DNA from: Verrucomicrobiota bacterium | Lineage (GTDB): Bacteria; Verrucomicrobiota; Verrucomicrobiia; Limisphaerales; UBA8199 | Direction of reading: 5' to 3' | Length of the DNA stretch: 64,000 bases | NCBI GenBank assembly: GCA_003176045.1 | Contig: PSRM01000068.1 | Coordinates: forward strand, 60,084 to 124,083 | Shown here: positions 6,548 to 50,547 of the stretch, piece by piece | Position numbering within the stretch: position 1 is the stretch's first letter | How the letters are laid out: the number at the start of each line of letters is the position of its first letter | Made by a program: the position numbers and the translations under genes | The notes under the pieces: model-generated | Told to the model about the DNA's origin: nothing | Database searches by the model: none | The model's input: only the letters and a program-made list of their open reading frames with translations

Positions 6548-6554
6548 GGCGACG

Positions 6555-17950: not shown

Positions 17951-20564
17951 GTTTTGGTTGGGCTGTTTGAGTTGATGCTGGAAGTTCATGGGGCAGGCGC
18001 ACGTATCGGACGGTGCCGCAGATGGGCTGGCGAGCGTCTGTGTGGTAATACAAGAATTCGGAATACTTGGCCCCTATTTGCTGGTCTGGTCGCGGAAAGC
18101 GCAGAATGGCTTCGCGAGCAACACTGGACAAACCCAAGTCTTCCGCGAGTCGTTCGACATCGCGGCGATCTCCGGTATTAAAGATGAACCAAGCTCGGGT
18201 ATTCCCGACCAAGGCTGTGCGAATCGGCGTGTCCGCAATCCGCGAGTATTGTTGAGCGACGATCAGGACCTGGCAGTTGAACTTGCGAAACTGCTCGTAA
18301 AGTTCTCGAAGGATGGCCTCGCCGCCTGGAATATCTATGAAACGCGAGACTTCTTCCACTATCACCCGCTTTTTTAAATGCCGCGGCATGTTCAGGATGT
18401 GGTTGCGGATGCCGTTGATTATCAAAAAACCCACTACCGTTTTAATTTCCTTCGCGGCTTCGGGGATGAATCCGAGTTCAAAATGGACTACAGGGCCGTT
18501 CAGTGAAACATTCGTTGCGCCATCAAACATGACACCGTAACTGCCGCCTCTGCACCATGGAGCGAGCAACGTAGCCAGCCATCGGCACTCCTCCTCATCC
18601 TGGTCCGCCAGCTCGAAGTATTCGCAGAGGGAAGACAAGGTGAGATGTTCCTCCGGCCGCAAAATAGCGAATACCATGTTGCGGACACTTTGCGGATCGC
18701 TTGATTCGAATTCGTCCAGGTCCGCTTGAGGAAGTTGCTTTAGGAGAGCGTTGCCCTCAACAGGGCGCGTCTGCTGGATTTCGTTAAAGCAACCGAAAGC
18801 TTCCAACTCCGAAATGCCTTGGCTTTTGGACAGACGCTTCACTGTTAGCGCAAGGCGAAGAAGTGCATTTCGCTGCTCCAAACTCAATTTCCGCATGTGC
18901 TCATCAGCATGGTCATTGGACAGTCGAGTGAGGTGGCGCGAGATGAGGGCTGAATGGCGACGTGCTTTGTCTTCGTCTGCGGGAAGCCCGATCATCCGAG
19001 CGACGACGGCAATTTGAGTTGCCGCGGCAAAGGAAGATCGCGGCAATTTCTGAGTATCCAAGGGATTGAGCGTTTGGTTTCCATCCACTCGGAAGACCAC
19101 AGGATTTACTCCGTGGCTGCGTGAATAGGGGACTTGCGACAGACCTTCCTCCACTATTGCCGTGAAAGCAAAATGAGGATCGGTTTCAAGCTCCAACTTG
19201 GTGAGCGCAAGGCTTTTGCCGACACCCGGTGCGCCCAAAGCCGTAAGGTTTTGAGGTGTGGATGCATCACCTTCGCCAAGAAACATAGCGGCGTTGACTA
19301 AATTGTTGTCGTTGCCGGGGAACAGTGCCTGAACGGGGCCGGGATGGCCTACAAAGCTGCTACACAGCGGCATGAGGTCCGCCGCAGTCCGGTCTTCGCA
19401 ATAGATTCGGAATCCCTGGTAGCGACTGCCTGTCCAGCCAGGCAGTGTTTTGGTGAACAAATGGCGGGACGTGCTGGGTAACGAGGCTTCATAATACTGG
19501 GCTCCGTTCATGGCCTGAAGCGTCGCCTTGATCGCAGCGGCTTTGTCGCCCAGTTCTTCCTCGGTTTTCGCTCGGACCAAAAGGATAATCTCTAATTCCA
19601 GAGGAACAGCCTCGCCTTCAGCAAGCCGCCGGATTTTTTCTTGCATCTGTCGAACGGTTACGGCCTGACGCTCATCAGGCTTGCGCAAGAGTTGCTGGTT
19701 GAGGCGATCCAGCGAGGATTGAGTCCTCTTCACGATGTCGGCCTTGGCCAGACGGCGGACATGAACTGTGAAGACGAAGTCGCTGAAGGGGAGATAAGTG
19801 AGGCGATGAACGATCGTAGGGAACGTTTCGGTTGGCAGCCGTCTTACAGTAATGGCCAGACAGTGATAGCCGTCCAAAACAAATCCGTGACGCCCCAGCC
19901 CCCGTAACTCAGAATTCCAAAAATTATCCAACAGGGATCGGGTCCTGTCGAATGTCGCGACAGGCTCATAATTGGGCTGGCGAGTGAGCGAAGGATTCAG
20001 GGCATCCGCCCAAAGTCGAACATTCTCAGATTCGGTCAGAGGAGTCACCCGTCCACCGATTGGCGCCAAAGCCTGGACAAGCGACTGTTCGAAATCGCTG
20101 AAAGCGCTTTTTACTTCCGTGAGCAACTGATCATAACGATGCTGGTTGCCTTTTGCTTTGGCCGATGGCCTGCTGTGTGTTTTCTGGTGGTAGGAAGCAT
20201 AGAGAATTACACGCTTTCTCAATAACTTTCCCGATTCCCGTGAGTTCCACTGTTGGATGAGGTTTGCATTCCGCAACGTTCGCGCGGTGGGGTTTTGGCA
20301 CGCCTCGGTGCTACGCTGATAGTCCAGGAGGATGCCAGTATCGACCGGAGCTTGAAACTGAATCAGTTGAAGGTTCATTCCCTCCGGAATTTGCCTCAGC
20401 ATCATCGAAATCGCGTCCTGGACCTGGTTGCATTCAGAATAAGAAGCCGATTGCAAATTGGGTGTATCGATTTCGAAACCCATCGAGATCACCCCCCTGC
20501 TCGGTCCGCCGAAGACGATAAGATTGTCCACGACAAACCCGTCCGGAAGTAGGTCAGCACTCAT
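17943..20564 (-). CDS. virB4: VirB4/TrbE-family T4SS ATPase
   Basis: 873 aa with Walker A LGAPGVGKS. The size and operon position are typical of VirB4. Confidence 0.9.
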   Translation of the reverse strand: MSADLLPDGFVVDNLIVFGGPSRGVISMGFEIDTPNLQSASYSECNQVQDAISMMLRQIPEGMNLQLIQFQAPVDTGILLDYQRSTEACQNPTARTLRNANLIQQWNSRESGKLLRKRVILYASYHQKTHSRPSAKAKGNQHRYDQLLTEVKSAFSDFEQSLVQALAPIGGRVTPLTESENVRLWADALNPSLTRQPNYEPVATFDRTRSLLDNFWNSELRGLGRHGFVLDGYHCLAITVRRLPTETFPTIVHRLTYLPFSDFVFTVHVRRLAKADIVKRTQSSLDRLNQQLLRKPDERQAVTVRQMQEKIRRLAEGEAVPLELEIILLVRAKTEEELGDKAAAIKATLQAMNGAQYYEASLPSTSRHLFTKTLPGWTGSRYQGFRIYCEDRTAADLMPLCSSFVGHPGPVQALFPGNDNNLVNAAMFLGEGDASTPQNLTALGAPGVGKSLALTKLELETDPHFAFTAIVEEGLSQVPYSRSHGVNPVVFRVDGNQTLNPLDTQKLPRSSFAAATQIAVVARMIGLPADEDKARRHSALISRHLTRLSNDHADEHMRKLSLEQRNALLRLALTVKRLSKSQGISELEAFGCFNEIQQTRPVEGNALLKQLPQADLDEFESSDPQSVRNMVFAILRPEEHLTLSSLCEYFELADQDEEECRWLATLLAPWCRGGSYGVMFDGATNVSLNGPVVHFELGFIPEAAKEIKTVVGFLIINGIRNHILNMPRHLKKRVIVEEVSRFIDIPGGEAILRELYEQFRKFNCQVLIVAQQYSRIADTPIRTALVGNTRAWFIFNTGDRRDVERLAEDLGLSSVAREAILRFPRPDQQIGAKYSEFLYYHTDARQPICGTVRYVRLPHELPASTQTAQPKHA

Positions 20565-21374: not shown

Positions 21375-22004
21375 TTAGTCGCGGACGCGACGTATTACAA
21401 CGGGTCTATCTTCTTCCTCCGCCAGCAGCCACTCTCGCATCTTTTCTCGACCCCGGCTGAGATGAGATTTTATCGTGTTCTCCGGTATGCCAAGGATCTC
21501 ACTAATTTCGAACACTTTGAGCCCGCCCCAGTAAAACAGGTTTATAGCATCGCGCTCAGGCTCACTCAGACTGGTCAGAGCATCACCCAACCCGCCACTT
21601 CGACCCGACCCAACTTCGAACGATTCACGCGATGACTGCCGGTGCTCGGTTAGTGCGAGAACGCCTTCATTGTGCCGCATTTGCTGGCGATATGCGCCAG
21701 AGCAACGGGAGTACAGCCTGAGTTTGAAGCGGCCTCGAAAATCTCCGTCTTTTGGCACAGGCTCCCTCAAAAGGCTCAAGAGAACGTCATGGAAGAGGCT
21801 TTCAGGGTCAGATGCTCCCTTATGAAAGCCAATCGCAAGCGCATAGCACTGCATGTTGGCGTAGTTCGTCGAGATGAACTCGGACCAAGATGGTTTTGAA
21901 CCAAAGCAATTTAGTCCAGCGTTGCGGTTAGATGAGTATTGATGATGTTGGCCTCTCGTTTCGGCTGAGGCCGTAGCCGTTGTCTTTCGATTTTTCACGG
22001 GCAA
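21375..22004 (-). CDS. ECF-type sigma-70 family RNA polymerase sigma factor
   Basis: Region 2-like FHDVLLSLLRE and region 4 LSEPERDAINLFYWGGLKVFEISEILGIPENTIKSHLSRGREKM. The start is a non-ATG codon (TTG or GTG), so it is uncertain. Confidence 0.75.
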   Translation of the reverse strand: MPVKNRKTTATASAETRGQHHQYSSNRNAGLNCFGSKPSWSEFISTNYANMQCYALAIGFHKGASDPESLFHDVLLSLLREPVPKDGDFRGRFKLRLYSRCSGAYRQQMRHNEGVLALTEHRQSSRESFEVGSGRSGGLGDALTSLSEPERDAINLFYWGGLKVFEISEILGIPENTIKSHLSRGREKMREWLLAEEEDRPVVIRRVRD

Positions 22005-22065: not shown

Positions 22066-23175
22066 GTGGCCACAACAGGTGGCCTGAATTCGTCCTCATG
22101 GTCCTCTATGGGCCAGATGGGGGCGAATGGGCTATTTGGGGAGAAATGGGAGGATTTACGATTCGCGGAAAGGCACCAATTTTGGATTGTAAATAATCAC
22201 CTCACACCGTGTACTCCTTCCGTGATCACTGCCGGCCACATGTTTGTGATGGAAATCTTCCGAGTTGCGAATTCTCGCTTCGGAGCCAATACCCTTAATC
22301 TTGCGGGAGTTGATGCGACGAGTTGGCGAGATTGGTGCGAAAACGTGTCGAGTATTTCACCATATTCCGCCCACAAGACCGCGACAATCATTTGGAAGCA
22401 GATGCATGAGCCAGGCCGGCAACGTGTACGGCGCGATCTACTTGCAATGATTCGCCATCTGGTTCCGACCGCTCCAAAGAAGTGGGATGCCGAAAACTTT
22501 CCTGCCTTCTTTCATAGATTGGCTTCCGAAACGCAGACAATTGGTCCTCTGAGGGCAAATTTTTGGGCGGAGGCGATTCATTCAGGCCGCAGATTCACGC
22601 TTCGCCCAGAAGAAGAACTTCGGGAAGGCACCGTCGATTCGGGAGGACTCATACGCCTCCACATCGAGCTAACTCGGCCAGCTTACCCCCTAATTCTTTG
22701 GATCACAGGCAATGGCAAAATACAGCCAATTTACCCGTGGCGGCGTTTCGATTGGAAAGGCGCGCTTAGGCACGAGAAAGTGGTCGCTCTGTGTCTTCCC
22801 GAAGCAGAGGACGAGGGATTCCCTCTCGAATCGTCGAACGGATTGGAAACGGCGATCCTCTTAGCGAGCGTTGAGGAAATTGGGCCTTATCTGATTGACG
22901 ACCTTCCAAACAGACTCCCTCCAAGTTTTCCTAACCCGAAAACCACCGGTCCCGTTTTGGACTCAGCAAAATCTCCGGTGGTTCCTTTTCGATTCACAAA
23001 GGACGCTGATTTAGGTGGCGCGTTGCACCGCACAAGATTGGGAGATCCGGTAAAAATCTCAGATCAAATACAACATCGGCATGACGAAATCGGGTCGAGA
23101 CTTGCTGGTTGTTTCGATCTGGTACAAGGATTTAGCTTTTTTGTCCGGAACCCAGAAACCGTAGCGAAAGAATGA
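22066..23175 (+). CDS. 369-aa hypothetical protein, possible DUF4384-like beta-sandwich in the central part
   Basis: GTG start, uncertain. The segment GGLIRLHIELTRPAYPLILWITGNGKIQPIYPW...ETAILLAS resembles the DUF4384 pattern that often accompanies caspase/CHAT proteins (from memory). Its stop overlaps the CHAT start (ATGA). Confidence 0.5.
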   Translation: MATTGGLNSSSWSSMGQMGANGLFGEKWEDLRFAERHQFWIVNNHLTPCTPSVITAGHMFVMEIFRVANSRFGANTLNLAGVDATSWRDWCENVSSISPYSAHKTATIIWKQMHEPGRQRVRRDLLAMIRHLVPTAPKKWDAENFPAFFHRLASETQTIGPLRANFWAEAIHSGRRFTLRPEEELREGTVDSGGLIRLHIELTRPAYPLILWITGNGKIQPIYPWRRFDWKGALRHEKVVALCLPEAEDEGFPLESSNGLETAILLASVEEIGPYLIDDLPNRLPPSFPNPKTTGPVLDSAKSPVVPFRFTKDADLGGALHRTRLGDPVKISDQIQHRHDEIGSRLAGCFDLVQGFSFFVRNPETVAKE

Positions 23176-26100
23176 ATTCCGTGACTGGGGATGTGCATTC
23201 AGTTCATCTCCAATCCCTTCAGGCGGCCGCGGACTGGTCAGGACTTGTAAGGTATTGGATAGTTCATCGCTACGAACCCGCTCTTCAATCGGCAGCGCTT
23301 TTGTTACGAAAGCGAACTGAAAAAGAAGGTGAGCCTTGGGACCAAATGGCGGACGCGTTCGGGGAGCTTGGAGCGGTTGGACTGGTATCGACCGACAAGA
23401 TTCCGCTGAGTCTTCGGGACAGATGCACATTTTCCGAGCGCGCGACCATTGGGCTTCTGGGTTGGCTGCCGGCGATTAGGTTTGCTGCCTCGTGTGAGAC
23501 TGCCTGGGAAGGTCCCCCGAAGGAGCAAGTTGAGATGGCTGTGCAGGGCTGTGGAAAGGCATTTTTGCTCGCGAAGGAGATTCACGACAAAGCTGTGGCT
23601 GCGCTGTGCGCAACATCTGCGACAGTTGGTTTCGGTTATTTGGGACGATGGGAGGAAGCACTGAAGGCAGGCAGCGCGGCGGTGGCCTTGCGGGAGGAGC
23701 TTACCACTGTCGAGCCTTCGTTGCATGCGACTTCCCTGGCCCAAGCCTTCCTGAATCTTGTAACTCCGACCTACAAGTTGGGAAAATTGCAGGATTCGCT
23801 GTTTTTTGCGAGGCGCGCTGTGCAGTGCGCGAAAGTCGGATGTCATTTCCGCCACGACCGTGCGCTGCCGCTGTTATCGTTAAGCATCCACAACCTCGGA
23901 TTTGCGCTGAAGGCGAACCATCGCCTTTTGTCTGCAAATTATTGTCTTCGGAAGGCGGTTGCCCTGCTGCGAACCCTGCCAGATGAAAAGGGCAGATTAG
24001 CTTCCGCATTGGACGGCTACGCCGCGGTCGCAGAGTCGCTTGGCCGCTTGGATGAAGCGGAGGCGAGTTGTCGGGAGTTGATTGACCTTCGTCGCAGGTT
24101 GGATCGTCCTGGCTGCCTGGTGGAATGCGAGTTCTTGGTTGGGGCCTTGCTCTTGATGGTTTCGATTCACATCAAGCAGGAACGGTTTGGAGCAGCCTTA
24201 GCTCTGTGCGAGGAAGCCGCAGAGAAATTCGAGCGAAGCAGACAGGCCGAAAACATTCAGCATTTAAACACCCTCGCTTTCATCTTTCATCTAAGAGGCG
24301 CCGCACAGTTTGGATTGCGAAATCTTGACGCTGCCAAAGGGAATTGCGATCGCGCCGTGAAGCTATTGGAACCCCTGGCATCAGCGAACCCGGCCAGCAG
24401 ATTCGAACTTGCCAAAGTGCTCGATTCACGTTCAATCGTTTTGAGGGAACTGGGAGATCTGGAACCTGCGCTGGCCGATGTTACTAGAGCCACTGAACTC
24501 TTAACAGATTTGCCATTAACTCTGGAATTCGAAGCGGCGGCGCGCACCATACTTTGCCTTTCTAGCAAGGGGGTAATCCTGGCGACTTTGGGCCATTGGG
24601 GCGCAGCGCGACGAACCTTCGAGGAAGCGACGGAAAAGTTAGAATTGCGAGCGAGCAGCGAGTCTGCCGCTTGGACAGCAACGACGAAAGCAAGGGTTCT
24701 GGTCAGCCTGAGTTACGTTCTTCTAAAACTTGAGGATAAACTCAGCGCCCTTGAAAGGGCCGGCGAGGCGTTGTCATGCCTCGAAAAGCGGGCGACTCTT
24801 GGCCTGCCGGAAAATGCCGAATTGCGCTCACTTGCACTGATGAACCGAGGAAATTCGCTCCTAGCGGTCGCTGATTTGGACGGGGCATTGGCCAGTTATC
24901 GAGAGGCTCTGTCGATCCATAAAGTTGCATTTAAAAAAAACCGGGATGCTCACCGGGGTTTCATTGCACGATTGTTGTTGAACATTGGGCTCGTAAGCCT
25001 GGAAAAGCAAAATCGCGCCGAGGCAATACGTTACTTTAGAAGGGCAGCGATGCTTTACCGGTGGGATGCGCGCCGACAGCCGGGTGCGTGGATGGCAGAG
25101 CGGTTGCAGGTGTTGAGCACATTGGGGCAGCAGCTTTCCTGGTCTGGCGACCCGGGTGATTCCGCACAAACACAAAAGGCAGTGAAGATTCTTGAAGAAG
25201 GTTTGAAGGTTGCCGAGGAATTGCGCGGGCACTTCTTTGATGGTGAACAGTTGCGTCGTGTTCAGTTATCCGCACGAGAAATCCATGAGGGGCTAATACT
25301 CAACCTGGTTGGTCTTGGCTCGCAATTGCAATCTGATGAGCCACTTCAGCGGGCTTTTTTCGTGGGTGAATCCAGCCGGGCACGAAACTTAAACGGAATA
25401 ATTGCGGAAGAGCGGCTGCGGACGGATGACATTCCGGCTCAGATCGCTGAGGAATTTTGGACGCAACGGCGGAGGTTACGAGAAGCCTCGCGAGCTGTAC
25501 ATTCATACGAAGCTGGCTTGGGTGCCATGTCGGGTGACTCGACGGTCCAGTCCCCCCGACCAGCCTTTTTGTCTATCAAGGCAGTTCATGACAAACTGTT
25601 GGCAGCCATTCAGCGCGAGCATCCAGACTTTTGCTCCCGAGAGGTACAACCCAAAGACCTTGCGCGGATTCGTTCATTACTCCCAACCGATATCCCAACA
25701 GCTTTTGTGCAGTACAACTTCTCCAAGCCCGGTTGCGTTGCCCTGATCCTTACGTCCGATGGGATTAAAGATGTGTTCTTGAGGCGCAGCGAGCGGACGC
25801 GGATTCGAGAAATCGCCAACCAGTGGTCTTCCCTGGCTCAAAATTTCGGGAATGTGCAAGAAATCGGAGCGCGCCGCCGAGAGACGGAGACCGCGCGCTC
25901 GTTGCTGGCGGACATCGCGAGCACCTTTTTGTGGCCCATCATGCCGCACCTCCACGATCGGGGCATACGGAGGGTGGTAATTTCGCCAAGTCGGGAACTG
26001 CACCTGCTTCCTTTACATGCCTGTCCGCTTGAAGATGGCGGACACCTGCTTGATTATTGCGAAGTCGCGTACACCCCGAGCTTCTCTGTGCTGTTTCATT

Positions 26101-26870
26101 GCGCCCAATCACAACAGGATCGGTCGAAAAAGCTGCTGCTGGCTACCGACCCCACGGCAGACCTGCGTTTTTCGGAAGTCGAAGCCCTTTGCATCGAAAA
26201 AATGTATTCCGAGAAGAAAGTGTTGATGTTTCGAAGAGTTACGAAAGAAAACCTTTGCCAACTGGCTCCGGCTTGCGATGTGTTGCACTACAGTGGCCAC
26301 GTTCGCTTCGTCCCTGGTGATCCCATGTCGTCGGCTTTGGTTCTGGAAGGGCGTAATGATTCATTCAGCAAGCGATGGCTCATGCTTCGAGATGTGCTCT
26401 TGGACCTAAGGCTGCGACCTAACGCCTTGGTCATCGTTAATGGGTGTGAAAGCGGTTTACTTCGCCCGGATGAAACCGACGACTACGTCAACTTCCCAAC
26501 TGGCTTCTTGGTGGCGGGGGCTTCATGTGTTTTGAGCACGCTGTGGCCCGTGCCTGATTTTTCGTGTGCTCTTCTGATGCGACAATTCCACAAGGAATGG
26601 GCTGAATCCAAGCAGAGCGTTTGCAGTGCCATGAACAAAGCGCAACGATGGCTTCGCGATGAGATTAAGACAGGCATCCAGTTACGCGACGAAGTGTTGC
26701 CCTCGATACTTCTTGATTTACCGCACAAGCACTTGCAGGACGTGTGCGCGGAAGCGGCCGACCATTACGCGAAAGCGTTCCGCAGAATCCCTCCGTTCGA
26801 GTCCCCGCTACATTGGGCATCCTTCCAGCCGATTGGGTTAGCATTCCCAATTCCGCATAACAAAAACTGA
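23172..26870 (+). CDS. TPR-repeat / CHAT-domain (caspase-like) protease
   Basis: 1232 aa. About 800 aa of TPR-like repeats, then a C-terminal CHAT core with catalytic-type His (LHYSGHVRF) and Cys (VIVNGCESG). Confidence 0.85.
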   Translation: MNSVTGDVHSVHLQSLQAAADWSGLVRYWIVHRYEPALQSAALLLRKRTEKEGEPWDQMADAFGELGAVGLVSTDKIPLSLRDRCTFSERATIGLLGWLPAIRFAASCETAWEGPPKEQVEMAVQGCGKAFLLAKEIHDKAVAALCATSATVGFGYLGRWEEALKAGSAAVALREELTTVEPSLHATSLAQAFLNLVTPTYKLGKLQDSLFFARRAVQCAKVGCHFRHDRALPLLSLSIHNLGFALKANHRLLSANYCLRKAVALLRTLPDEKGRLASALDGYAAVAESLGRLDEAEASCRELIDLRRRLDRPGCLVECEFLVGALLLMVSIHIKQERFGAALALCEEAAEKFERSRQAENIQHLNTLAFIFHLRGAAQFGLRNLDAAKGNCDRAVKLLEPLASANPASRFELAKVLDSRSIVLRELGDLEPALADVTRATELLTDLPLTLEFEAAARTILCLSSKGVILATLGHWGAARRTFEEATEKLELRASSESAAWTATTKARVLVSLSYVLLKLEDKLSALERAGEALSCLEKRATLGLPENAELRSLALMNRGNSLLAVADLDGALASYREALSIHKVAFKKNRDAHRGFIARLLLNIGLVSLEKQNRAEAIRYFRRAAMLYRWDARRQPGAWMAERLQVLSTLGQQLSWSGDPGDSAQTQKAVKILEEGLKVAEELRGHFFDGEQLRRVQLSAREIHEGLILNLVGLGSQLQSDEPLQRAFFVGESSRARNLNGIIAEERLRTDDIPAQIAEEFWTQRRRLREASRAVHSYEAGLGAMSGDSTVQSPRPAFLSIKAVHDKLLAAIQREHPDFCSREVQPKDLARIRSLLPTDIPTAFVQYNFSKPGCVALILTSDGIKDVFLRRSERTRIREIANQWSSLAQNFGNVQEIGARRRETETARSLLADIASTFLWPIMPHLHDRGIRRVVISPSRELHLLPLHACPLEDGGHLLDYCEVAYTPSFSVLFHCAQSQQDRSKKLLLATDPTADLRFSEVEALCIEKMYSEKKVLMFRRVTKENLCQLAPACDVLHYSGHVRFVPGDPMSSALVLEGRNDSFSKRWLMLRDVLLDLRLRPNALVIVNGCESGLLRPDETDDYVNFPTGFLVAGASCVLSTLWPVPDFSCALLMRQFHKEWAESKQSVCSAMNKAQRWLRDEIKTGIQLRDEVLPSILLDLPHKHLQDVCAEAADHYAKAFRRIPPFESPLHWASFQPIGLAFPIPHNKN

Positions 26871-27039: not shown

Positions 27040-27954
27040 ATGAGATCGAAAAAAATACTTGGCACTAAACTGTGGCGACCCGACCTCGGAGCAATTCCGG
27101 CCAGGCTGGGCGATCGGATCAAAGGCCAACCTGAAATACTCTGTCGCCTGGCGGAGACGATCATACGGCGAGAAACCGATGCGATTCCGCAGCGCGGCCC
27201 ACGGGGCAAATTCTTCTTCCCAGGACCAACTGGAACTGGAAAGACATTCACTGCACAGACGGTTGCCGATCTGTTGTTCGGGCCTGGGCATCTCATCATT
27301 TTCGATTGTTCAGAATACAAGACGGTGGAGAGTCTTGCCGCCCTGCTTGGAGATCGGAATGGGGATCAAGGCCGATTTGCTGGGGCCTACGAACGGGTCC
27401 CCGCGGGCTGCTGGCTTTTTGATGAAATCGAAAAGGCGCACAAGGAGTTTGTGGATCTGTTTTTGCAAATGGTTGGCGACGGGCGGGTCACCCAAGCCAA
27501 TGGACGAACTATTGATTTGTGCGGTATTTATATTTTCGTCACAAGCAATCTGGGTTCTGCCCAAATCCTGGGCCGACAACACTTGCCTTTCGCTTCCCTT
27601 GAACGCCATGTGGTGCATCACGTTCAAAAGCACCTCCGACCTGAATTACTCGGACGATTCGGACGACCATACGTATTCCGGCCTTTAAGTCGCGAGGCTC
27701 AGTCGGAAATCGCCATCCAGAAGCTAGAACAACTAGTGGACTGGCAGCGCGCGCAAGGCCGGACCATCAGCTATGATCCTATGGTCGTAACGTTTCTGAT
27801 GCAAAGGGGCTTCTCTTCGCGGCTTGGCGCGCGCCCATTATTGGATGTCATTGAAGAATTTGTTGGAAACGCGGTTGCGCAGAACCTTCTGACAGGGGGC
27901 TCGGGCAACGGCCGGTTGCTCGTTCGGGATGGCCATCTTGAATTGGTGCGATGA
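27040..27954 (+). CDS. Stand-alone ClpA/ClpB D2-like AAA+ ATPase
   Basis: IKGQPEILCRLAETIIR, Walker A FFFPGPTGTGKT, Walker B WLFDEIEKAHKEFVDLFLQMVGDGRVT, then IYIFVTSNLGS and GARPL. Together these match the AAA_2 (Clp D2) module. Confidence 0.8.
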   Translation: MRSKKILGTKLWRPDLGAIPARLGDRIKGQPEILCRLAETIIRRETDAIPQRGPRGKFFFPGPTGTGKTFTAQTVADLLFGPGHLIIFDCSEYKTVESLAALLGDRNGDQGRFAGAYERVPAGCWLFDEIEKAHKEFVDLFLQMVGDGRVTQANGRTIDLCGIYIFVTSNLGSAQILGRQHLPFASLERHVVHHVQKHLRPELLGRFGRPYVFRPLSREAQSEIAIQKLEQLVDWQRAQGRTISYDPMVVTFLMQRGFSSRLGARPLLDVIEEFVGNAVAQNLLTGGSGNGRLLVRDGHLELVR

Positions 27955-29396
27955 AAATCAGCGCCATCCGGGACCTCCTCGTCGGATCAACTGGCCTTTG
28001 GTTGGCAATGGGCGCGGCGATATTCCTACTGACAGCTTTGGCTATTGCCAGCCGATTCGGGTCTTCCCATCGGTCCGAAATCGTGGCCCGAATAAAATGG
28101 TTTAGTTGGGATCGGCGCACCTTCTGCCAGCATTTCCTGATCACCGGGGCCACGGGTTCTGGAAAAACGCTCGGAGGCATCTTGCGCCTACTTTTCCAGG
28201 TCTTCAAACACGAACCTCGATTCGGGGGACTTTGTGTGGATGTCAAAGGATTGCTTCATGAAAAAGTTGTGGAAATGGCGAAGCATTTCGGGCGGCCTGA
28301 CGATGTGGTGGTGCTTCAAGTGAGATCGAACTCAGCAACGACCGAGTGGAGGCCTGTGAATCGGTTGAATCTGGTGGGTGACCGCTCAATTCCCTTTGGT
28401 ACTTATGCGCGCTGCGTGGCGGATACCGCCGCTGCTTTGGGGAACCGCCAAGAACAAACCTTTTTTCGTCGAGCCGGCCAAATCCACATCGGAAAGGGTT
28501 TGGAAGCTCTGCACGCGCTCGGGTACGAAGTCACGTTGGAGAACGTCCACAACATGTTGGTGAATCCAGGGGACACGGCCCGAGTCGTGAAGGAATTAGG
28601 CACTAAGGAAACGACCCGTGGATTGGCCGAACACTTCCAGAATTACCTCGCTCAACCGCCTGAACAGTTGGCGGGCATCGTTGGTACCGTGGGCAATTAC
28701 CTCCATTACTTCACGGAGCCGGCGATAGCCGAAGTGTTCTGCCGGGATAGCACTTTTGCATTGGAGGACGTGGACAAAGGAAAAATAATTTGTCTGGCAC
28801 TGCCGCAAAAGTATCAGACGGAGCGTCGTTTTGTCGGGACCTTCCTGAAGCTTCTTTTCTTCACACATGCGCTATCACGGTTTGACGCGGACGCCAAACG
28901 GCGTCAGTTGCAGAATATGCTTCTCTTTCTCGCCGACGAGTACCAGCAATTTGTCACGGCCAGCGAAGATGGGCTAAGCGACCATTCCGTAATTGATCTT
29001 GCTCGCGAGGCGCTGATGGCGGTGGTCGCTGCGACACAGAGCACAACCTCATTCGTTCCAGCTCTCGGCACGGACCAAGCCAAGGTGCTGACACTCAACT
29101 TGAGGAACCGGTTAATCTTCACTTCAGCCGATGAAGACGACGCAAAGGCGGCGGCAGAATTCCTGGGCAGGAAAACGGTCAAGACGCGATCTTGGACATG
29201 GAGCAACGGAAAACGTTCCGAAACCTTTACTGAAACCGAGGACTATCGAGTTAAACCCCATCAACTGCGCAAGCTCCGGAAGCATCAGTGCATCGTCGCC
29301 CATGCGAACGGCCGCTTTCGCAAGTTCACACTGCCTCCGGTGCAGCCGGACGGGACTGTGCCGAACTGGTACCGCCGTTCCTGGTTCACCCTCTGA
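27951..29396 (+). CDS. virD4: Type IV coupling protein (VirD4/TraG/TraD family)
   Basis: N-terminal TM segment, Walker A ITGATGSGKT, Walker B LLFLADEYQQF. Its start overlaps the AAA+ stop (ATGA). Confidence 0.85.
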   Translation: MKISAIRDLLVGSTGLWLAMGAAIFLLTALAIASRFGSSHRSEIVARIKWFSWDRRTFCQHFLITGATGSGKTLGGILRLLFQVFKHEPRFGGLCVDVKGLLHEKVVEMAKHFGRPDDVVVLQVRSNSATTEWRPVNRLNLVGDRSIPFGTYARCVADTAAALGNRQEQTFFRRAGQIHIGKGLEALHALGYEVTLENVHNMLVNPGDTARVVKELGTKETTRGLAEHFQNYLAQPPEQLAGIVGTVGNYLHYFTEPAIAEVFCRDSTFALEDVDKGKIICLALPQKYQTERRFVGTFLKLLFFTHALSRFDADAKRRQLQNMLLFLADEYQQFVTASEDGLSDHSVIDLAREALMAVVAATQSTTSFVPALGTDQAKVLTLNLRNRLIFTSADEDDAKAAAEFLGRKTVKTRSWTWSNGKRSETFTETEDYRVKPHQLRKLRKHQCIVAHANGRFRKFTLPPVQPDGTVPNWYRRSWFTL

Positions 29397-29487: not shown

Positions 29488-32235
29488 ATGATCACCGGAA
29501 AACCACAGAAGAACTTGCGCGACGCGAAGGAGTATTTCCGGCAGCATTTGGCTCAAGGGGACTATCATTCGGAAAGCCAAAGAATCCAAGGAATGTGGTT
29601 CGGGCGAGGAGTTGCCCGCCTGGGACTGAATCCTGCAGATCGAGTGACGGCAGAACACTTCGAGCGCCTTTGCGACAATCTCCATCCATTGACGGGGGAA
29701 AGGCTCACGGTCCGTAAGAGAGTCGTTGATCGCCGCATTTTCTACGATTTTACCGTCAGCGCGCCCAAGAGCGCTTCAATAATGGGCCTGATTATGCAGG
29801 ATAGTCGAATTCTCACAGCGCATGAGGAAGCGGCCAGTGAAGCTATGGCGCAAATGGAAAAGGTGGCTGCCGCCCGCGTACGGCAGGGCGGCCAACGGTC
29901 CGAACGCACAACGGGCGAAATCGTTGCAGCCATCTTTCAGCATGACTCTTCGCGAGCACTGGATCCGCAACTGCACACACATTTCATAATTTGGAATGCC
30001 ACATTTGACCCCGTGGAGAAACGTTGGAAGGCGCTCGAAACGATGGCGATGTTTGAAAAAATCAATTTCTTCACCGAAGTCTATCGCAACACTCTGGCGA
30101 GGCGATTACGCGAATTCGGCTATGGAATCCGGAACACTGCTCACGGATTTGAAATCGAGGGCGTCCCTCAGGGAATAATTGAGCGATTCAGCAAACGGCG
30201 TCAGCAGATTTTGGCTGCTGAGTCGCAGGCAATCGAGGCGGTGAATAAAAAACTTCGTGAAGCGCTTGAGCAAGCTGTGCGCGACAGCGTCGGACAACCA
30301 GCGGAGGTGCGAGAAAAAGCAGAGAAAGCCCTTCGCGAATTTAAGCCCATCACAAAGCTCACAAACACAGGTCGAGCAACCTTGGCTCACACTACCCGCC
30401 AGTGGAAAGACACAAACCTGGACCCGGCCGAGGTGCTTAGCTATCAAAAATCTCAACTGTCCAGCGATGAAATCGTGCAACTCCAACGGTTAATGCGGCC
30501 AGATGCGACCGCCATCAAAATTAAGCCCGAATCTATCTCCGCTAAGCAGGCAATTGATTATGCCCGCGACCACTTGTTTGAACGAAATAGCGTCGTTCCC
30601 ATCACGGAATTGTTGCGCGAAGCCTTAACATTTTCGCGCGGCCGACTTGAGTTGCCCGAGCTCGAGGCGGAGGTAGTGAAACGAGATGATTTTCTTCCAG
30701 TCGGTGAGTTTTTGACGACCCGCGAAACCCTGGTCGAGGAGCGACAAATGATCACTATCACGAATGAGGGGTTGGACCAACTCCGGCCCATCAACCCGAG
30801 TTACGTGCCGACCGCAAAACTGTCCGTTGAACAGAATCAAGCAGTGCGATTCTTGCTCAATTCTGCCGATTTGGTGGTCGGCTTACGCGGTGGCGCCGGG
30901 ACCGGCAAGACTGACCTGCTACATGAATTGGTTCGCAGAATAGAGCAACGCCACACTGCTGTTGTTCTCGCGCCGACAACGTCGGCGGTTGAAGTCCTTC
31001 GGAGAATGGGCTTTAAACGCGCTGCAACTCTCCAGCGATTTCTCCAGGACGAAGCGTTTCAGCACGATGAAAAGGGGAGCGTGTTGGTTGTTGACGAGGC
31101 GGGGTTACTTTCCCGGCGTGATATGCTCGCTCTTCTCAATATTGCCCATCGCTTGGGGTCTCGACTGATTCTGAGCGGTGATACGAGACAACACACCGGA
31201 ATCGAAGCGGGAGATGCGTTGCGTTTGCTCGAAGAGCGAAGCGCACTCCAAGTTATCGGTGTCCGGAAGATTCGTCGCCAAGTGGAGATTGAATACCGGG
31301 AAGCTATTGGTGAGCTCGCGAGAGGCGAAGGAGCAAAGGCCTTGGCGCGACTGGACAGGATCGGGGCTGTGTCAGAAATCGAAGGAGACAAACGGTATCG
31401 CCGCCTGGCCGAAGAATACATTTCATCGATCAGGGCCGGCAAAACGTCTTTAGTTGTAAGCCCGACATGGCGTGAAATTGAACAGGTTACCCAGAGCATT
31501 CGAGAGCAGATGAAGGAACAAGAACTTCTGGGGACGCGCGAAAGCACAATTGTGGTACTTCGCGGATTGAAGTGGACAAAAGCGCAAAAGCGTGACCTTC
31601 GCAATTATCGGCCTGGGTTGGTCCTCAACTTCTATCGAAATACTGCTCGCTTCGTAAAGGGTGACACTGCGGAGGTTATCAAGATGGAGCGCGACGCGTT
31701 GTGCGTCCAACTTCGGAATGGCCAACGCACGGAGGTTACCCGGAAACAAGCCGATTGCTTTGAAGTCACCGAAAAGGTGGATTTGAAGGTCGCGCCGGGG
31801 GACCGCCTGTTGCTTCAATCCAGCGAAAAGGCGAGAAGACTGTTCAATGGTCAAATCGTCACGGTCAAGGAAATCGCTCCGAACGGTGTAATCTTCTTGT
31901 CAGATGGGCGAGAAATACCGGTAGGATTTCGGACGTTCACGCACGGCTATTGCGTCACGAGTTACGCGTCACAGGGACGAACAGTGGACCATGTGTTTGT
32001 GGCAATGGATTCCCATTCCTTTCAGGCGGCTAGCCGCAATCAGTTTTATGTGAGCACTTCGCGTGCGAGGGAACGAGTCAAGATTTACACTGATGACAAA
32101 GAGTTTTTGAGGATGGTCGTCAATAAATCTGGTTCCCGGCTCTCTGCGATCGAATTGGCGGAAAGCCGACGCTTGGCGACCCGTGAATCAACCACCAACC
32201 GGCAAAGTGTAACGTTGGGAGTTGCGGCAGCCTGA
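29488..32235 (+). CDS. traI: MOBF relaxase (TrwC/TraI type) fused to a RecD-like helicase
   Basis: N-terminal TrwC domain with YDFTVSAPKS and the His triad HDSSRALDPQLHTHFIIWN. Helicase Walker A LRGGAGTGKT. C-terminal YASQGRTVDHVFV. Confidence 0.9.
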   Translation: MITGKPQKNLRDAKEYFRQHLAQGDYHSESQRIQGMWFGRGVARLGLNPADRVTAEHFERLCDNLHPLTGERLTVRKRVVDRRIFYDFTVSAPKSASIMGLIMQDSRILTAHEEAASEAMAQMEKVAAARVRQGGQRSERTTGEIVAAIFQHDSSRALDPQLHTHFIIWNATFDPVEKRWKALETMAMFEKINFFTEVYRNTLARRLREFGYGIRNTAHGFEIEGVPQGIIERFSKRRQQILAAESQAIEAVNKKLREALEQAVRDSVGQPAEVREKAEKALREFKPITKLTNTGRATLAHTTRQWKDTNLDPAEVLSYQKSQLSSDEIVQLQRLMRPDATAIKIKPESISAKQAIDYARDHLFERNSVVPITELLREALTFSRGRLELPELEAEVVKRDDFLPVGEFLTTRETLVEERQMITITNEGLDQLRPINPSYVPTAKLSVEQNQAVRFLLNSADLVVGLRGGAGTGKTDLLHELVRRIEQRHTAVVLAPTTSAVEVLRRMGFKRAATLQRFLQDEAFQHDEKGSVLVVDEAGLLSRRDMLALLNIAHRLGSRLILSGDTRQHTGIEAGDALRLLEERSALQVIGVRKIRRQVEIEYREAIGELARGEGAKALARLDRIGAVSEIEGDKRYRRLAEEYISSIRAGKTSLVVSPTWREIEQVTQSIREQMKEQELLGTRESTIVVLRGLKWTKAQKRDLRNYRPGLVLNFYRNTARFVKGDTAEVIKMERDALCVQLRNGQRTEVTRKQADCFEVTEKVDLKVAPGDRLLLQSSEKARRLFNGQIVTVKEIAPNGVIFLSDGREIPVGFRTFTHGYCVTSYASQGRTVDHVFVAMDSHSFQAASRNQFYVSTSRARERVKIYTDDKEFLRMVVNKSGSRLSAIELAESRRLATRESTTNRQSVTLGVAAA

Positions 32236-46617: not shown

Positions 46618-47208
46618 ATGATCAAGGGTTTTATCGTCGAGTCCCGCGAGGAATGCATGCGTGAAATAACGGATGTGCTAATTCCGAACAAATTTTTCTT
46701 TTACATAGCTGGACAGTGTCGGCGCGAGCCGCCAGCAATAGAGGATGAAAACACTCTGCAGATTTTTGAAGCCGCCGTGTCGAAGCTCGGCGCGACTGAG
46801 TTCGAAGCCGAATTGCGGTTTTATCGGTGGGGCGCGTGGCGGATTGTCGCGGGGACTGAAAGAGTTGTTCCCGTCTTTAAAGAGGCGAGAGCGCCGGCGC
46901 GTGATATGCGACAGCACCCGCTCCATTGTATGGGGTATACCATCAAGGCCATTCAGCTAGGCGACGAGGAACATTACCAAGCATACGTTGAAATCACTCG
47001 CGAGTTTCTCGGGCTTTTTGAACCTCGCTGGCTCAATTTCGCGCTCAAATGGTCCGTCGAGCAGATTGCAAAAGATTTTTCACAAGTAGATTACGTTAGA
47101 TATCCGCAGGTTCTTGCGGAGGTTGAGAGAATTCTTGCTGTTATCAACGAGCGGCGAGAAGCGGCGGGATTGCCACTCGTTCCGCGCGATGCGTTGTTCA
47201 TTACCTGA
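46618..47208 (+). CDS. 196-aa hypothetical protein, paralogue of 39829..40461
   Basis: See 39829..40461. The N-terminal length before the FFYIAG block is the same in both. Confidence 0.55.
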   Translation: MIKGFIVESREECMREITDVLIPNKFFFYIAGQCRREPPAIEDENTLQIFEAAVSKLGATEFEAELRFYRWGAWRIVAGTERVVPVFKEARAPARDMRQHPLHCMGYTIKAIQLGDEEHYQAYVEITREFLGLFEPRWLNFALKWSVEQIAKDFSQVDYVRYPQVLAEVERILAVINERREAAGLPLVPRDALFIT

Positions 47209-47303: not shown

Positions 47304-47435
47304 CGCGCAATTCCTAAAGGCGAAATCTTGGCGGAGCGAGGAGGGTCAAGGTGGAGGCGCTGACTCCCTCGGACGTGAAACGCGCACTACCTTGACGCCC
47401 GGAGCGCCGCCATAAAATGGTCGCCGGAATGCGCG
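47304..47435 (+). repeat. 132-nt structured imperfect palindrome, copy B
   Basis: Same architecture and orientation as 9195-9326. Helices: 47304-47314/47426-47435, 47319-47323/47421-47425, 47330-47337/47404-47411. It ends 2 nt before the stop codon of 47438..47914. Confidence 0.65.
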
Positions 47436-47437
47436 GT

Positions 47438-47914
47438 TCAGCAGTCTGGACATGCGTTGCCTGCACCTTCGCACCCAGCGAGGTTCTCCCGAGCAGCGAG
47501 GAAAGAAAGTATCTCGCGCTGCGTGATCCGCCATGAGTCCTCCCAACCAGCTACGAAACTGAATTTGAATTGTTGGTAGTGGCGCATAGCCAGATTCTGG
47601 TCTCCGCTTGCGTCCATCAAAAGCGCCAAAGCTAACTGGGCCGGACCACTACCGCCGTATCCCCATTCAAAGCCAGCCGGGCTATGGTTTCGTGCCTGAA
47701 GGCATAACGGCAATGGCCGTGAGGAAACTTGAGCTTCCGTCGAACCCTCGGGCACTGGTTCTTCTACATAAACTCGGCAAATCCCGTCGGCCTCGCGGAA
47801 GCCGGTGTAAGCTTTTTCAACCTGTTTTGGTAAGAGTAAGGAGGGGAGGGCGGTTTTTGGAAGCTCTGGTTCGAGTGCTCCATTTTGCTGTTGTTCACGC
47901 TGTTGTCGCTCCAT
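47438..47914 (-). CDS. 158-aa hypothetical protein with a GFEWGYGGSGPAQLALAL motif (paralogue of 48754..49257)
   Basis: GGGGGAGG lies 7 nt upstream. The core LPLCL..RNHSP.GFEWGY.GSGPAQLALAL is shared with the paralogue. Confidence 0.65.
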   Translation of the reverse strand: MERQQREQQQNGALEPELPKTALPSLLLPKQVEKAYTGFREADGICRVYVEEPVPEGSTEAQVSSRPLPLCLQARNHSPAGFEWGYGGSGPAQLALALLMDASGDQNLAMRHYQQFKFSFVAGWEDSWRITQREILSFLAARENLAGCEGAGNACPDC

Positions 47915-47990: not shown

Positions 47991-48701
47991 CTAAGGCCGC
48001 GAGCGCGTATTTTTCCAAGTGCTTCCATCCGCAAAGGCCAATCCAGTTCCCCAGCCCAGTGCGCGTCGGCAGGCTGCGATTGTGGTGCCGGTCGTGATTA
48101 CATTATCTACGAAATAAGCCGGCATTACCTGCATTGGTCCTGCGACTCGAATGATCGCGTGTTGCTCGATATTGAGTCCAAAGCGGCCGTCCAAGCGGCG
48201 GTCACACGACGACTCCACAGGATGGGAGCGAGTAAGCGCGCACTTGACTCGGGCGCGAGGGACCAAAGCGGCGATAGCACGAGCCAACTCGAGGTTCGCG
48301 GTTAGGGTGCCATCACTGGCGGGGACTGGAACCAGCCAACACGGAGCGTCAATGAGCGCGGCCATTGCGGGCGCAGCAATTTCAATGGCGTCTTCGAGGC
48401 CGTCCTTAAGCTGCCAGGCTATCCGGCGCGCGCGTCGCTCCTCCGCGGTGACGGTTCGCCATTCAACGGGAACGTATTTGGAAGCGTAACGATCCGTGTG
48501 AACAAGGACTGACGCCTGAGAATCAAGCACTGGGATCCGGAGCTTCGCCCGATTTGAGTCGGGGGCGTCTTGATGATAGCCTTTTCGCTGGGCGCGAGTG
48601 TCAACTCCGTTGGCGGCGAGAGATGGAAGTTTTAAAGCGGAGAGGCCAGAGGCAGGGGCTTGTATCGAGTTCCGACCCGATTTATCAAGATGTTGTTCCA
48701 C
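47991..48701 (-). CDS. Phosphoribosyltransferase-fold protein (ComF-like)
   Basis: The C-terminal YFVDNVITTGTTIAACRRAL is the PRPP-binding loop of type I PRTases. GTG start. Confidence 0.65.
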   Translation of the reverse strand: MEQHLDKSGRNSIQAPASGLSALKLPSLAANGVDTRAQRKGYHQDAPDSNRAKLRIPVLDSQASVLVHTDRYASKYVPVEWRTVTAEERRARRIAWQLKDGLEDAIEIAAPAMAALIDAPCWLVPVPASDGTLTANLELARAIAALVPRARVKCALTRSHPVESSCDRRLDGRFGLNIEQHAIIRVAGPMQVMPAYFVDNVITTGTTIAACRRALGWGTGLAFADGSTWKNTRSRP

Positions 48702-48753: not shown

Positions 48754-49257
48754 TCAAACACGGTTGCTCGCGCTGCCGATTCCAGAGGCAGCCGATTCGT
48801 CTTCCGAGATGTTTGGCGGGTGTCCCTTCAATTCTTTAAGCCCGTCATCTTCGATGCCGGCATGTTCGCGGACATTTCTAGCTGAGATGGTCCAGTTGTT
48901 ATCCCAATATGCAACAACGTCTCGCTTGAAACCTTGATAATTGCGAAGCGCGATTCTTTCGTCGCCGGTGGCGTCGAGCATTAGCGCCAAGGCCAACTGT
49001 GCAGGCCCGCTTCCCTCGTATCCCCACTCGAAACCGCACGGACTATGGTTTCGAACTTCGAGGCACAACGGCAGAGTTCGAGACGCCTTTCCCCGTCTGG
49101 AGCCTCGGACGGGCTCCTCGACCCAAACTTCGACTTTGCCATTCCTGCGCCTGATACCATGATAAGCTTTTTGATACGGAGCCGGCATTGTCAAAGCGGA
49201 GAGGGCTGTTTCTGAAACCTGCTTTCTGACTCTTTGGTTTGTATCTTGCCGTTCCAT
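48754..49257 (-). CDS. 167-aa hypothetical protein, paralogue of 47438..47914
   Basis: GGGGAGG lies 7 nt upstream. It shares the GFEWGYEGSGPAQLALAL core. Confidence 0.65.
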   Translation of the reverse strand: MERQDTNQRVRKQVSETALSALTMPAPYQKAYHGIRRRNGKVEVWVEEPVRGSRRGKASRTLPLCLEVRNHSPCGFEWGYEGSGPAQLALALMLDATGDERIALRNYQGFKRDVVAYWDNNWTISARNVREHAGIEDDGLKELKGHPPNISEDESAASGIGSASNRV

Positions 49258-49743: not shown

Positions 49744-50547
49744 TTATGCCGCAATCCTTTCCCGGGCGTGTTCCACATATCTCGTTCGATACGGTACGAC
49801 ACACTCGTGCAACATAGCCGAGGTCGGAACGTGAGCAAGCGGAGCTGAGCGTAGCATCGCTCTGACCTGTTGTCGGATGAATGCGCCCATCTGAGGCCAA
49901 GTGATCCGATGCATCTCAACAGCATTAACTGCCGGCGGGATTGGCACCTGGTGTGAGCGAGCAACGAATTCCCCTCCATCAATCACGTCGGTGACTTTGT
50001 GAATTGTAAGGACAAGATGCTTTCGTCCATCCCGCACCATAGCGGCAATTGGATCGGGGCCGGGATACGACGGCCACGTGTCGCCGCTGTGATGGAAATT
50101 GAAGAATCCAAGCGACGGAAAGTTGATCAAAGCAGTCGGAATCTTCTGGCCGAATGTTGCCATTAGGCAAAGCTGCGGCCGCCATTCTTCCAAAAAAGCG
50201 GTGAAGAATTCTGGCGTTTTTATGCGACCCACATAACAAGGAATCTGCCGGGCCGCCACCAAGAGCGGGACCATTTTTTCCTCATATTGTGCGTGGGGGT
50301 ATTTCCAGAGGCGAACATCAGCGTGCGAAAATGGCTGACGAGGATCGTCCGTTGCCACACCGACAATTTCGACCTGCCGTGCCAGGTCCCCCGAGAGCAA
50401 TTCTTTGATTACATGGTAACCGCCATGGAAGCTCCCGAACACGGCCACACGACATTTAGTTCTGGGATCATCGAGCCGACGGTGGGGAAGGCGGAGGATG
50501 TTCGCTCCGCATATTGCCGAAGAAGCAGCCGCATTCATTTCACGCAA
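49744..50547 (-). CDS. Formyltransferase-fold protein (Fmt/PurN N-domain-like)
   Basis: FNFHHSGDTWPSYPGPDPIAAMV resembles the NxHxSLLPxxRG loop. It is followed by KVTDVIDGGEFV (Asp of the catalytic triad). TTG start. Confidence 0.6.
   Translation of the reverse strand: MREMNAAASSAICGANILRLPHRRLDDPRTKCRVAVFGSFHGGYHVIKELLSGDLARQVEIVGVATDDPRQPFSHADVRLWKYPHAQYEEKMVPLLVAARQIPCYVGRIKTPEFFTAFLEEWRPQLCLMATFGQKIPTALINFPSLGFFNFHHSGDTWPSYPGPDPIAAMVRDGRKHLVLTIHKVTDVIDGGEFVARSHQVPIPPAVNAVEMHRITWPQMGAFIRQQVRAMLRSAPLAHVPTSAMLHECVVPYRTRYVEHARERIAA

Follow-up and report, generated by a model that had tools for sequence, protein, structure and literature searches.

Two copies of a conserved DNA hairpin in a Verrucomicrobiota conjugative element are probable ssoU-type single-strand origins

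Contig PSRM01000068.1 of a Verrucomicrobiota bacterium carries, in the 64,000-nt stretch analysed here (the window; positions are counted from its first letter), two copies, A and B, of a long imperfect hairpin (Table 1) that we consider probable single-strand origins of the ssoU type, active only when the + strand is single-stranded. Pfam scans of the window indicate a conjugative element: a type IV secretion system (T4SS) block, a type IV coupling protein (T4CP) and a TrwC relaxase are followed, mostly on the minus strand, by ArdC, ParB/ParA, a beta-CASP nuclease and RadC, with DUF932 on the plus strand. Both copies occupy intergenic gaps just past minus-strand stop codons. Copy A ends 34 nt short of the stop of open reading frame (ORF) 9361..9996, and copy B ends 2 nt short of the TGA stop at 47438-47440 (minus strand) of ORF 47438..47914; an earlier note on this DNA had given both distances, and direct reading of the coordinates bears them out. 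The note had also placed the T4SS, T4CP, relaxase, ParAB, RadC and DUF932 in the ~38 kb between the copies, which the Pfam scans confirm; the element reaches beyond these 38 kb, and both copies are distant from the relaxase gene. That the copies bracket the transfer core holds as geometry, but no evidence was found that this arrangement has a meaning. In other elements the number of copies ranges from one to three, their positions are arbitrary and their orientation is mostly the same.

Table 1. Positions of the two hairpins, their parts and selected genes of the conjugative element in the window
Feature	Position	Strand	Description
Copy A	9195..9326	+	Complete imperfect hairpin, candidate ssoU-like single-strand origin; fold z -3.9 to -4.0; covariance-model score 81.2 bits, E 2e-22
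Copy B	47304..47435	+	Complete imperfect hairpin, candidate ssoU-like single-strand origin; fold z -4.0; covariance-model score 82.5 bits, E 1e-22
Conserved apex of copy A	9235..9287	+	GTCAAGGTGGAG (9235-9246), variable apical stem-loop, ACTACCTTGAC (9277-9287)
Conserved apex of copy B	47345..47396	+	GTCAAGGTGGAG (47345-47356), apical stem-loop, ACTACCTTGAC (47386-47396)
Promoter-like pair of copy A	9283..9309	+	TTGACG 9283-9288 (stem), 15-nt imperfect helix, TAAAAT 9304-9309 (internal loop)
Promoter-like pair of copy B	47392..47418	+	TTGACG 47392-47397, 15 nt, TAAAAT 47413-47418
CCTAA bulge of copy B	47313..47317	+	5' (template) arm; counterpart in copy A, CATAA 9203-9207
T4SS block	9361-21219	minus	Includes VirB4 (17943..20564)
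AAA_2 ATPase		+	Plus-strand group with the CHAT-TPR protein, T4CP and TrwC
T4CP	27951..29396	+	
TrwC relaxase	29488..32235	+	
Mrr_cat nuclease	1903..2772	minus	Cargo island left of copy A (938-9056)
ParB_N-like	2774..3937	minus	Cargo island
SMC/AAA_23 ATPase	4415..6661	minus	Cargo island
AIPR	6773..8632	minus	Cargo island
LigD 3'-phosphoesterase, stand-alone (LigD_N)	8670..9056	minus	Cargo island

Copies A and B are direct repeats whose arms are 86-89% identical, and each forms one long imperfect hairpin of ~130 nt with z about -4 under both RNA and DNA parameters; none of the shuffled + strand sequences folded as well. Helix P2 carries three compensatory double changes between the copies (CGCAG/CTGCG in A, GGCGA/TCGCC in B), and the apex of copy A has an invariant G.T wobble and an AG/A internal loop. 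In the predicted folds of both copies TTGAC lies within the 10-bp core helix and TAAAAT within an internal loop, and direct reading puts exactly 15 nt between TTGACG and TAAAAT in A and B alike, so that the promoter-like pair which the earlier note had described in both 3' arms, with its -35-like box in a stem and its -10-like box in an internal loop, is upheld. A covariance model found exactly two matches in the 64-kb window, A and B, the third-best scoring 14.5 bits. Neither a U-tract terminator nor an upstream promoter for a + strand RNA was seen when the sequence at the two copies was read directly.

Scanning species-representative genomes with a gapped pattern built on the sequence common to A and B gave 53 loci, 51 of them real; L026 (Stenotrophomonas) and L035 (an unclassified gammaproteobacterial metagenome-assembled genome, MAG) were chance pattern matches. 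Most loci came from Verrucomicrobiota MAGs, and a minority from Planctomycetota, Lentisphaerota, Clostridia, Peregrinibacteria, Saccharimonadales, Dehalococcoidia, Desulfosarcina and Thiomicrospira. A looser pattern returned at least 120 matches in metagenomes and 31 in viral contigs, about half of the latter being real and about half chance occurrences inside coding regions. Folding was used as the filter for relatives, ungapped flank pairing did not discriminate, and 179 instances in 123 sequence clusters from many phyla remained, their metagenomic part drawn from among the matches listed; all cluster-based counts below rest on this set. In most relatives the core is the apex of a hairpin with at least 20 enclosing base pairs, and the common apex reads (G/A)TCAAGGTGGAG-(variable stem-loop)-ACTACCTTGA(C/T), again with the G.T wobble and the AG/A loop, while the outer stems vary freely among subtypes yet remain complementary. 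As the outer stems were misaligned in a plain MAFFT alignment, from which RNAalifold recovered only the core, helix P3 was specified by hand. Across subtypes it shows 14 pairs with changes on both sides; values as high as these came from none of 500 shuffles (from 9 of 500 for further pair types), and slid controls were far lower. No assembly held more than two of the 53 genome-scan loci and their contexts were those of mobile elements, so that a genome-wide scatter independent of mobile DNA, which the earlier note had named as a finding that would speak against its proposal, was not seen.

Two further features of the hairpins were observed in passing. The apical loops of the window copies are longer and of mixed sequence, unlike the G-tract-rich loops of many Verrucomicrobiota subtypes, which pair poorly (e.g. 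GGAGGCGGGGGCAGCCGGGGCGC in L009 and GGCGGCGGGAGGAGTGGGC in L008) and could form G-quadruplex-like structures in single-stranded DNA (ssDNA). In addition, AGCG (often GAGCG or TAGCG) is about threefold enriched on both arms of the core-adjacent helix, in 33 and 32 of 119 clusters against 10 and 13 expected, and on both arms at once in 18 clusters, while its complement is not enriched; examples are found in the P3 internal loop, in the window (47335-47339 and 47402-47406) and in L059, L066 and L091. The motif resembles the CS-6 sequence TAGCG(T/A) of the single-strand origins called ssoA.

Stem mismatches, counted with G.U pairing switched off, bear on the question of which strand folds. Single mismatches were mostly purine-purine (GG 41 and AG 29 versus CC 2 and CT 5), the core-closing pair was G.T in 16 clusters and A.C in one, and the G.T inside the core was invariant. 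The excess of purine-purine mismatches, together with G.T over A.C, indicates selection on the strand that carries TTGA...TAnnAT in its 3' arm, and not on a minus-sense transcript of the flanking genes.

Taking as -10-like any hexamer downstream of TTGAnn with at least five of six matches to TATAAT, A2 and T6 being required, we found one in the 3' arm of 66 of 122 usable clusters, as compared with 12 in the mirrored 5' arm, 12 in the 5' arm as read and 8.7 in shuffled sequences. The hexamers (TACAAT, TATAAT, TAAAAT) stand at discrete distances from TTGAnn: the main class of 14-17 nt peaks at 15 nt (25 clusters), followed by 16 (11) and 14 (6), and minor classes lie at 6-7, 11-12 and 20-22 nt, the short class being exemplified by L006, L043, L020 and L199. 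Since the hexamer is specific to one arm it is unpaired, and such an arm-specific hexamer at a fixed distance fits a pre-melted -10 box at a fork junction. Of 119 clusters, 25 have CCTAA in the 5' arm where 3.9 would be expected, and the motif is conserved in Verrucomicrobiota subtypes. This CCTAA bulge might be the start site of a leftward RNA or primer, which would open with 5'-AGG.

The genes around the relatives are mobile-element genes throughout and include T4SS, T4CP, TrwC, DnaG-like primases, the TOTE AEP primase, AbiEii, KAP NTPase, C5 methylase, serine recombinase, SSB, Replic_Relax, Rep_OBD and integrases. Genes of the relatives were called with a codon log-odds caller, which is crude; calling by third-position G+C content failed at this G+C content. 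A strand-split Pfam census of ORFs within 3.5 kb, one representative per cluster, revealed Rep_1 (10), REP_ORF2-G2P (7), RepSA (4), Mob_Pre (4) and Phage_integrase (8) in the same sense as the hairpin, while the top of the antisense list held formyltransferase (5), DnaG-like primase (4), RadC (2) and TrwC (2) but neither a rolling-circle initiator nor Mob_Pre. At the level of the family, the hairpin thus shares the strand specificity of the ssoU type, i.e. co-orientation with rep, and given that the sense strand of rep is the displaced strand, we read this co-orientation as the behaviour of a single-strand origin. Eleven relative contigs are complete circles of 1.4-13.7 kb, and in a circle of 2.55 kb (L047) all genes, Rep_1 included, lie on the element's own strand. 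The initiators or relaxases found with the hairpin belong to six or more unrelated families (Rep_1, G2P-like, RepSA, RepL, Rep_OBD and TrwC/Mob_Pre). Where extra copies exist they are co-oriented as a rule (L050, L039, L019, L003, L066, L072, L101, L116 and L130), L116 having three copies in one orientation within 10.5 kb. Some copies (L022, L033, L051, L102, L105) sit at the very edge of an integrated element, adjoining chromosomal genes (glutaminase A, AcrB, a giant RCC1-repeat protein) or, in L105, a tRNA gene ~260 nt away.

Searches by direct similarity placed the window copies in no described class. At the gathering score Rfam matched neither the window nor any of 20 diverse relatives, and permissive E-values up to 10 added only chance matches; blastn searches of 72,556 plasmid records, F included, with copy B and of plasmids with an AT-rich relative found nothing; and a literature search by sequence returned unrelated primers only. 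L070, which is AT-rich and associated with Rep_1, did match small plasmids of the Bacillus cereus group and one Enterococcus plasmid by blastn, one of these being a 3.6-kb RepL/MobV plasmid. A motif search then located AAAGGTGGAG-ATTTTTTGAG...CTCAAAAAAT-ACTACCT at 1315-1399 of pUB110, on the rep-sense strand just beyond bleO. This motif folds into an AGGTGG/CTACCT helix that has the G.T wobble and the AG/A loop and is enclosed by a 16-bp outer stem, and it lies ~150 nt upstream, on the same strand, of GTGTG/TT, which from the pMV158 origin of transfer (oriT) we take to be the MOBV nick sequence. The motif falls within the BA3 region, at the position of ssoU relative to oriT and mob, and by our own arithmetic the chance of a 16-nt gapped motif of this kind in a 4.5-kb plasmid is about 1e-4. 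The BA3 region of pUB110 is known to carry the lagging-strand synthesis signal (PMC7006159). L070 and similar metagenomic Rep_1 plasmids appear to bridge the Verrucomicrobiota and pUB110 forms, and on these sequence comparisons homology of the family of A and B to ssoU is likely.

The ssoU (palU) of pUB110 and pMV158 resembles copies A and B in its apex, AAGGTGGAG-(stem-loop)-ACTACCT, which has the G.T wobble and the AG/A loop and is enclosed by a longer hairpin, in its place on the rep-sense nicked strand (in pUB110) and in its occurrence on mobilisable or conjugative elements. It differs in that A and B reside in Verrucomicrobiota, have G+C-rich arms and occur as two copies in an element with TrwC and a T4SS; their core helix is extended to GTCAAGG/CCTTGAC and followed by a 15-nt imperfect helix and TAnnAT, whereas pUB110 is without the TTGAC extension. 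ssoU depends on RNA polymerase and functions in a broad range of hosts (PMC5703833), and by analogy A and B would depend on RNA polymerase as well. It is also important for establishment following conjugation: loss of ssoU reduces conjugative transfer of pMV158 into Enterococcus 300-1000 fold (PMC4595007). In the integrative conjugative element ICEBs1 a single-strand origin (sso) comes directly behind the relaxase gene, and a second region is redundant with it (PMC4595007), an arrangement paralleled by the two copies A and B. The sso1 of ICEBs1 belongs to the ssoT type, as in pTA1060 and pBAA1. It is likewise an orientation-specific single-strand origin inside an integrative conjugative element but has three stem-loops and a different sequence and architecture; the sso region of pTA1060 (6349-6549) reached 6 bits at best against our model and had no core motif, which places A and B outside ssoT. 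The ssoA origins of pT181, pLS1 and pE194 are also ssDNA hairpins primed by RNA polymerase, unlike the present family in their narrow host range and in their RSB and CS-6 sequences. These two sequences, RSB (TTATGCCGAGAAAATTT) and CS-6 (TAGCGT/A), define ssoA (PMC4598088), and both are absent from 9190-9330 and 47300-47440, so that A and B are not ssoA members either. At the minus-strand origin of filamentous phage f1/M13, two separate ssDNA hairpins are likewise read by the sigma-70 holoenzyme as -35 and -10 boxes for primer RNA; the sequence of this origin is unrelated to that of A and B, which form one long hairpin instead of two.

Together, the data led us to the following model, in which the + strand of the window would be the transferred strand of the element. 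Once transferred by conjugation, or while the excised element replicates by rolling circle, the + strand would be single-stranded and fold into the ~130-nt imperfect hairpin, whose conserved apex and TTGAC stem would present a duplex -35-like surface. Beyond the 15-nt imperfect helix, the non-template TAAAAT would be pre-melted in the internal loop, giving a fork-junction geometry to which the host RNA polymerase holoenzyme could bind in order to start on the 5' arm, probably at the CCTAA bulge. The short leftward RNA would then be extended by DNA polymerase, rendering the element double-stranded, and the same start may give early transcripts of the minus-strand genes left of copy A. The earlier note had regarded its own proposal, transcription of left-hand genes from the folded strand, as only half supported, given that at copy B the transcript would run antisense to 46618..47208; this difficulty is removed because priming needs no co-oriented gene downstream. 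As a primary role, transcription of the left-hand genes gives way to second-strand priming, which the ssoU relatives make probable.

Several observations weigh against an ssoU-type origin at A and B. The scan patterns fixed the core sequence, and its apparent invariance is thus partly a search artefact. The model trained on Verrucomicrobiota scores pUB110 at 12.5 bits (E 0.14), and the link to ssoU therefore rests on the 16-nt motif, the geometry and the intermediate sequences. The 15-nt spacer is below the 17 +/- 1 nt optimum of sigma-70, and the minor spacing classes suggest that TTGA may not be a -35 box in all relatives, the short classes being unable to use it as such. L112 and L127 each have two copies in opposite orientations, which could stem from rearrangement or misassembly or else speak against a strict strand specificity. 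A hunt for an oriT in the window, by intergenic inverted repeats and an R388-like nick pattern, found matches at chance level only. The TrwC gene lies on the same strand as the element in the window and in the S3-type L072 and L167 and is antisense in L046, L001 and L053, revealing no consistent rule; under the geometry of R388 or F the minus strand would be the one transferred, and the copies would be on the wrong strand. A MOBV-like or ICEBs1-like geometry, in which the relaxase gene is sense on the transferred strand, is free of conflict with the model. In addition, the minus-strand ArdC, ParAB, RadC and SNF2 genes fit a transferred + strand under the rule reported for the orientation of leading-region genes (PMC11541004). 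The geometry of the transferred strand is nevertheless the main risk to the ssoU-type explanation. Within the window, 33873-33885 (CGTATTGTGTCG) resembles the R388 nick region GCGTATTGTCT/ATAG; the site lies in the first codons of a small gene on the minus strand, upstream of ArdC, has no adjacent inverted repeat and is probably a chance match.

The alternative that shares most with the ssoU-type model is an early promoter of the Frpo/ssi type, i.e. a transferred-strand hairpin that imitates a duplex promoter, is mismatched at the -10 box and gives primer RNA and early transcripts (Masai and Arai 1997, as summarised in PMC11541004). On this account the folded + strand would mainly transcribe the leftward genes (the LigD-PE/AIPR/SMC-like operon) from the incoming strand, implying zygotic expression of establishment or anti-defence genes; we consider it unlikely as the main role, although it could coexist with priming. 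The hairpin promoter geometry it requires is the same, and A and B, like Frpo/ssi of F and ColIb-P9, are predicted ssDNA hairpins with the -35 box in duplex and the -10 box mismatched. Copy A lies ~140 nt upstream of the minus-strand LigD_N gene (8670..9056), so that downstream of this copy there is a gene that a transferred + strand would template; copy B has none, the genes on its left (46618..47208 and DUF932) being on the + strand. Among the Verrucomicrobiota loci the nearest left gene is on the minus strand in roughly 18 of 26 by the crude gene calls, a bias that may just mirror a general strand bias of the elements, and in L037 the immediate left neighbour, on the minus strand, encodes SSB, much as Frpo in F is followed by ssb (PMC11541004). 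On the other hand, L002, L010, L022 and L033 have + strand or chromosomal genes on the left, and in small rolling-circle plasmids all genes are on the element's strand, so that a leftward RNA would be antisense to every one of them. Frpo stands upstream of ssb/psiB-type genes, its descriptions lack the conserved apex of the family (a comparison by description only), and copy B shows no sequence similarity to Frpo/ssi or to any other plasmid record by blastn. The likeness to Frpo/ssi drawn by the earlier note is therefore sound as to mechanistic class, in view of the mobile context, the co-orientation with rep and the arm-specific -10 box, and fails as to descent, for there is no sequence relation to Frpo and the relatives point to ssoU.

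The other alternatives, most of which the earlier note had raised (a 3'-untranslated-region stabiliser, an antisense double-stranded promoter, a recombination element or one like repetitive extragenic palindromes), are disfavoured. Given that both copies lie in gaps just past minus-strand stops and that the fold energies are significant under RNA parameters too, the hairpin could act as RNA, either as a minus-sense 3'-untranslated or intercistronic hairpin (a stabiliser, processing site or terminator) or as a + strand small RNA gene. This is very unlikely, as the mismatch spectrum and the G.T versus A.C counts favour the + strand fold over a minus-sense RNA hairpin, which was rejected on this evidence, a + strand RNA would have neither terminator nor promoter, and Rfam has no match, which also disposes of a 6S-like RNA; a literal TAnnAT in one arm at a fixed distance from TTGA would be unexpected of an RNA element, and the association with the rep sense of rolling-circle replicons points to DNA. 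A site for a DNA-processing enzyme, be it a leading-strand origin or nick site, an oriT, an attC-like or Xer-type folded recombination site or a miniature inverted-repeat transposable element (MITE), would account for the strong conservation of the apex across phyla, which suggests recognition by a protein, for CTTGA(C/T) in the 3' arm (compare the CTTGATA nick motif of pC194/phiX) and for copies at element edges or near tRNA genes (L022, L033, L051, L105). Nick sites are enzyme-specific, whereas the hairpin accompanies its six or more unrelated initiator and relaxase families; CTTGA is base-paired, not looped; the window copies are far from the relaxase gene; and no R''/R' core sites of attC were seen. 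On these grounds such a site is highly improbable, and a pC194-type rolling-circle double-strand origin, with one Rep family and an unpaired CTTGA, was rejected along with retron and attC. Variable, covarying outer arms around a conserved apex are the reverse of a MITE with conserved termini, and with two copies in 64 kb, at most two loci per assembly and mobile contexts neither a MITE nor a dispersed palindromic repeat fits. Least probable of all is a conventional double-stranded promoter that would fire to the right, in antisense to the convergent minus-strand gene, with palindromic arms that are incidental or an operator: TTGACG-N15-TAAAAT does make a weak sigma-70 promoter on the + strand, and a few relatives (L030, L052, L039) have a + strand gene on the right, but in most loci the right-hand gene converges on the element, a 15-nt spacer is poor for a duplex promoter, and both the covariation of the 5' arm with spacer and flanks and the systematic unpairing of the -10 box would go unexplained.

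Further genes of the window are of interest for the element as a whole. The island left of copy A (938-9056) probably serves defence or anti-defence. In the stretch that separates the T4SS from the T4CP/relaxase operon, a sigma-70 region-4 protein (21375..22004, minus) lies beside a 1232-aa TPR-CHAT protease (23172..26870, +) and a DUF4384 protein, forming a group at 21375-26870; an element-encoded sigma factor could be relevant to recognition of a hairpin promoter. Past copy B follow two DUF6166 genes, a formyltransferase-like gene (49744..50547) and a 1719-aa SNF2 protein. In L049, L005, L007 and L038 the hairpin comes directly after the stop of a homologue of this formyltransferase-like gene, while in the window the DUF6166 genes (47438..47914 and 48754..49257) and ORF 47991..48701 separate it from copy B, so that 47438-49257 looks like an insertion adjoining the hairpin. 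The single hairpin of L038 has a homologue of 9361..9996 on its left (minus) and the formyltransferase on its right, and it unites the gene neighbourhoods that the window splits between A and B. At 57855-63932, on the minus strand, two radical SAM proteins (one with a B12-binding domain, one HemN-like), a TauD-family dioxygenase and a class II aminoacyl-tRNA-synthetase-like protein form a possible small-molecule or peptide-modification cargo.

Single-strand origins decide the establishment of plasmids and conjugative elements in a new host, yet annotations hardly ever include them, and most known examples come from a few Firmicutes plasmids. As a principle the single-strand origin is already known, and what is new here is most likely an unannotated member and a wide extension of a known kind; the value of the finding lies in the extension of a known family and in an annotation tool, not in a new principle. 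We also considered the bolder and rather doubtful idea that the apex (AAGGTGGAG / ACTACCTT with the G.T wobble and the AG/A loop) is a universal ssDNA docking module for RNA polymerase with its primary sigma factor, conserved across at least eight phyla through contacts with the most conserved parts of the enzyme, and that in large conjugative elements it would serve both as second-strand origin and as a Frpo-like zygotic promoter of cargo for defence or anti-defence, the LigD-PE/AIPR/SMC-like island being an example. Should this hold, a single covariance model could tell which strand is transferred or displaced in thousands of mobile elements as yet uncharacterised. If A and B are ssoU-type origins, then the + strand should be the one transferred here, with ArdC, ParAB, RadC and the large SNF2 protein read from it, and the broad-host-range ssoU module extends beyond Firmicutes to conjugative elements of Verrucomicrobiota and to small plasmids of many phyla. 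A model of sequence plus structure could then annotate the family and, being strand-specific, reveal the transferred or displaced strand; the main interest is the conservation of the apex across phyla and its use as a strand marker for mobile elements.

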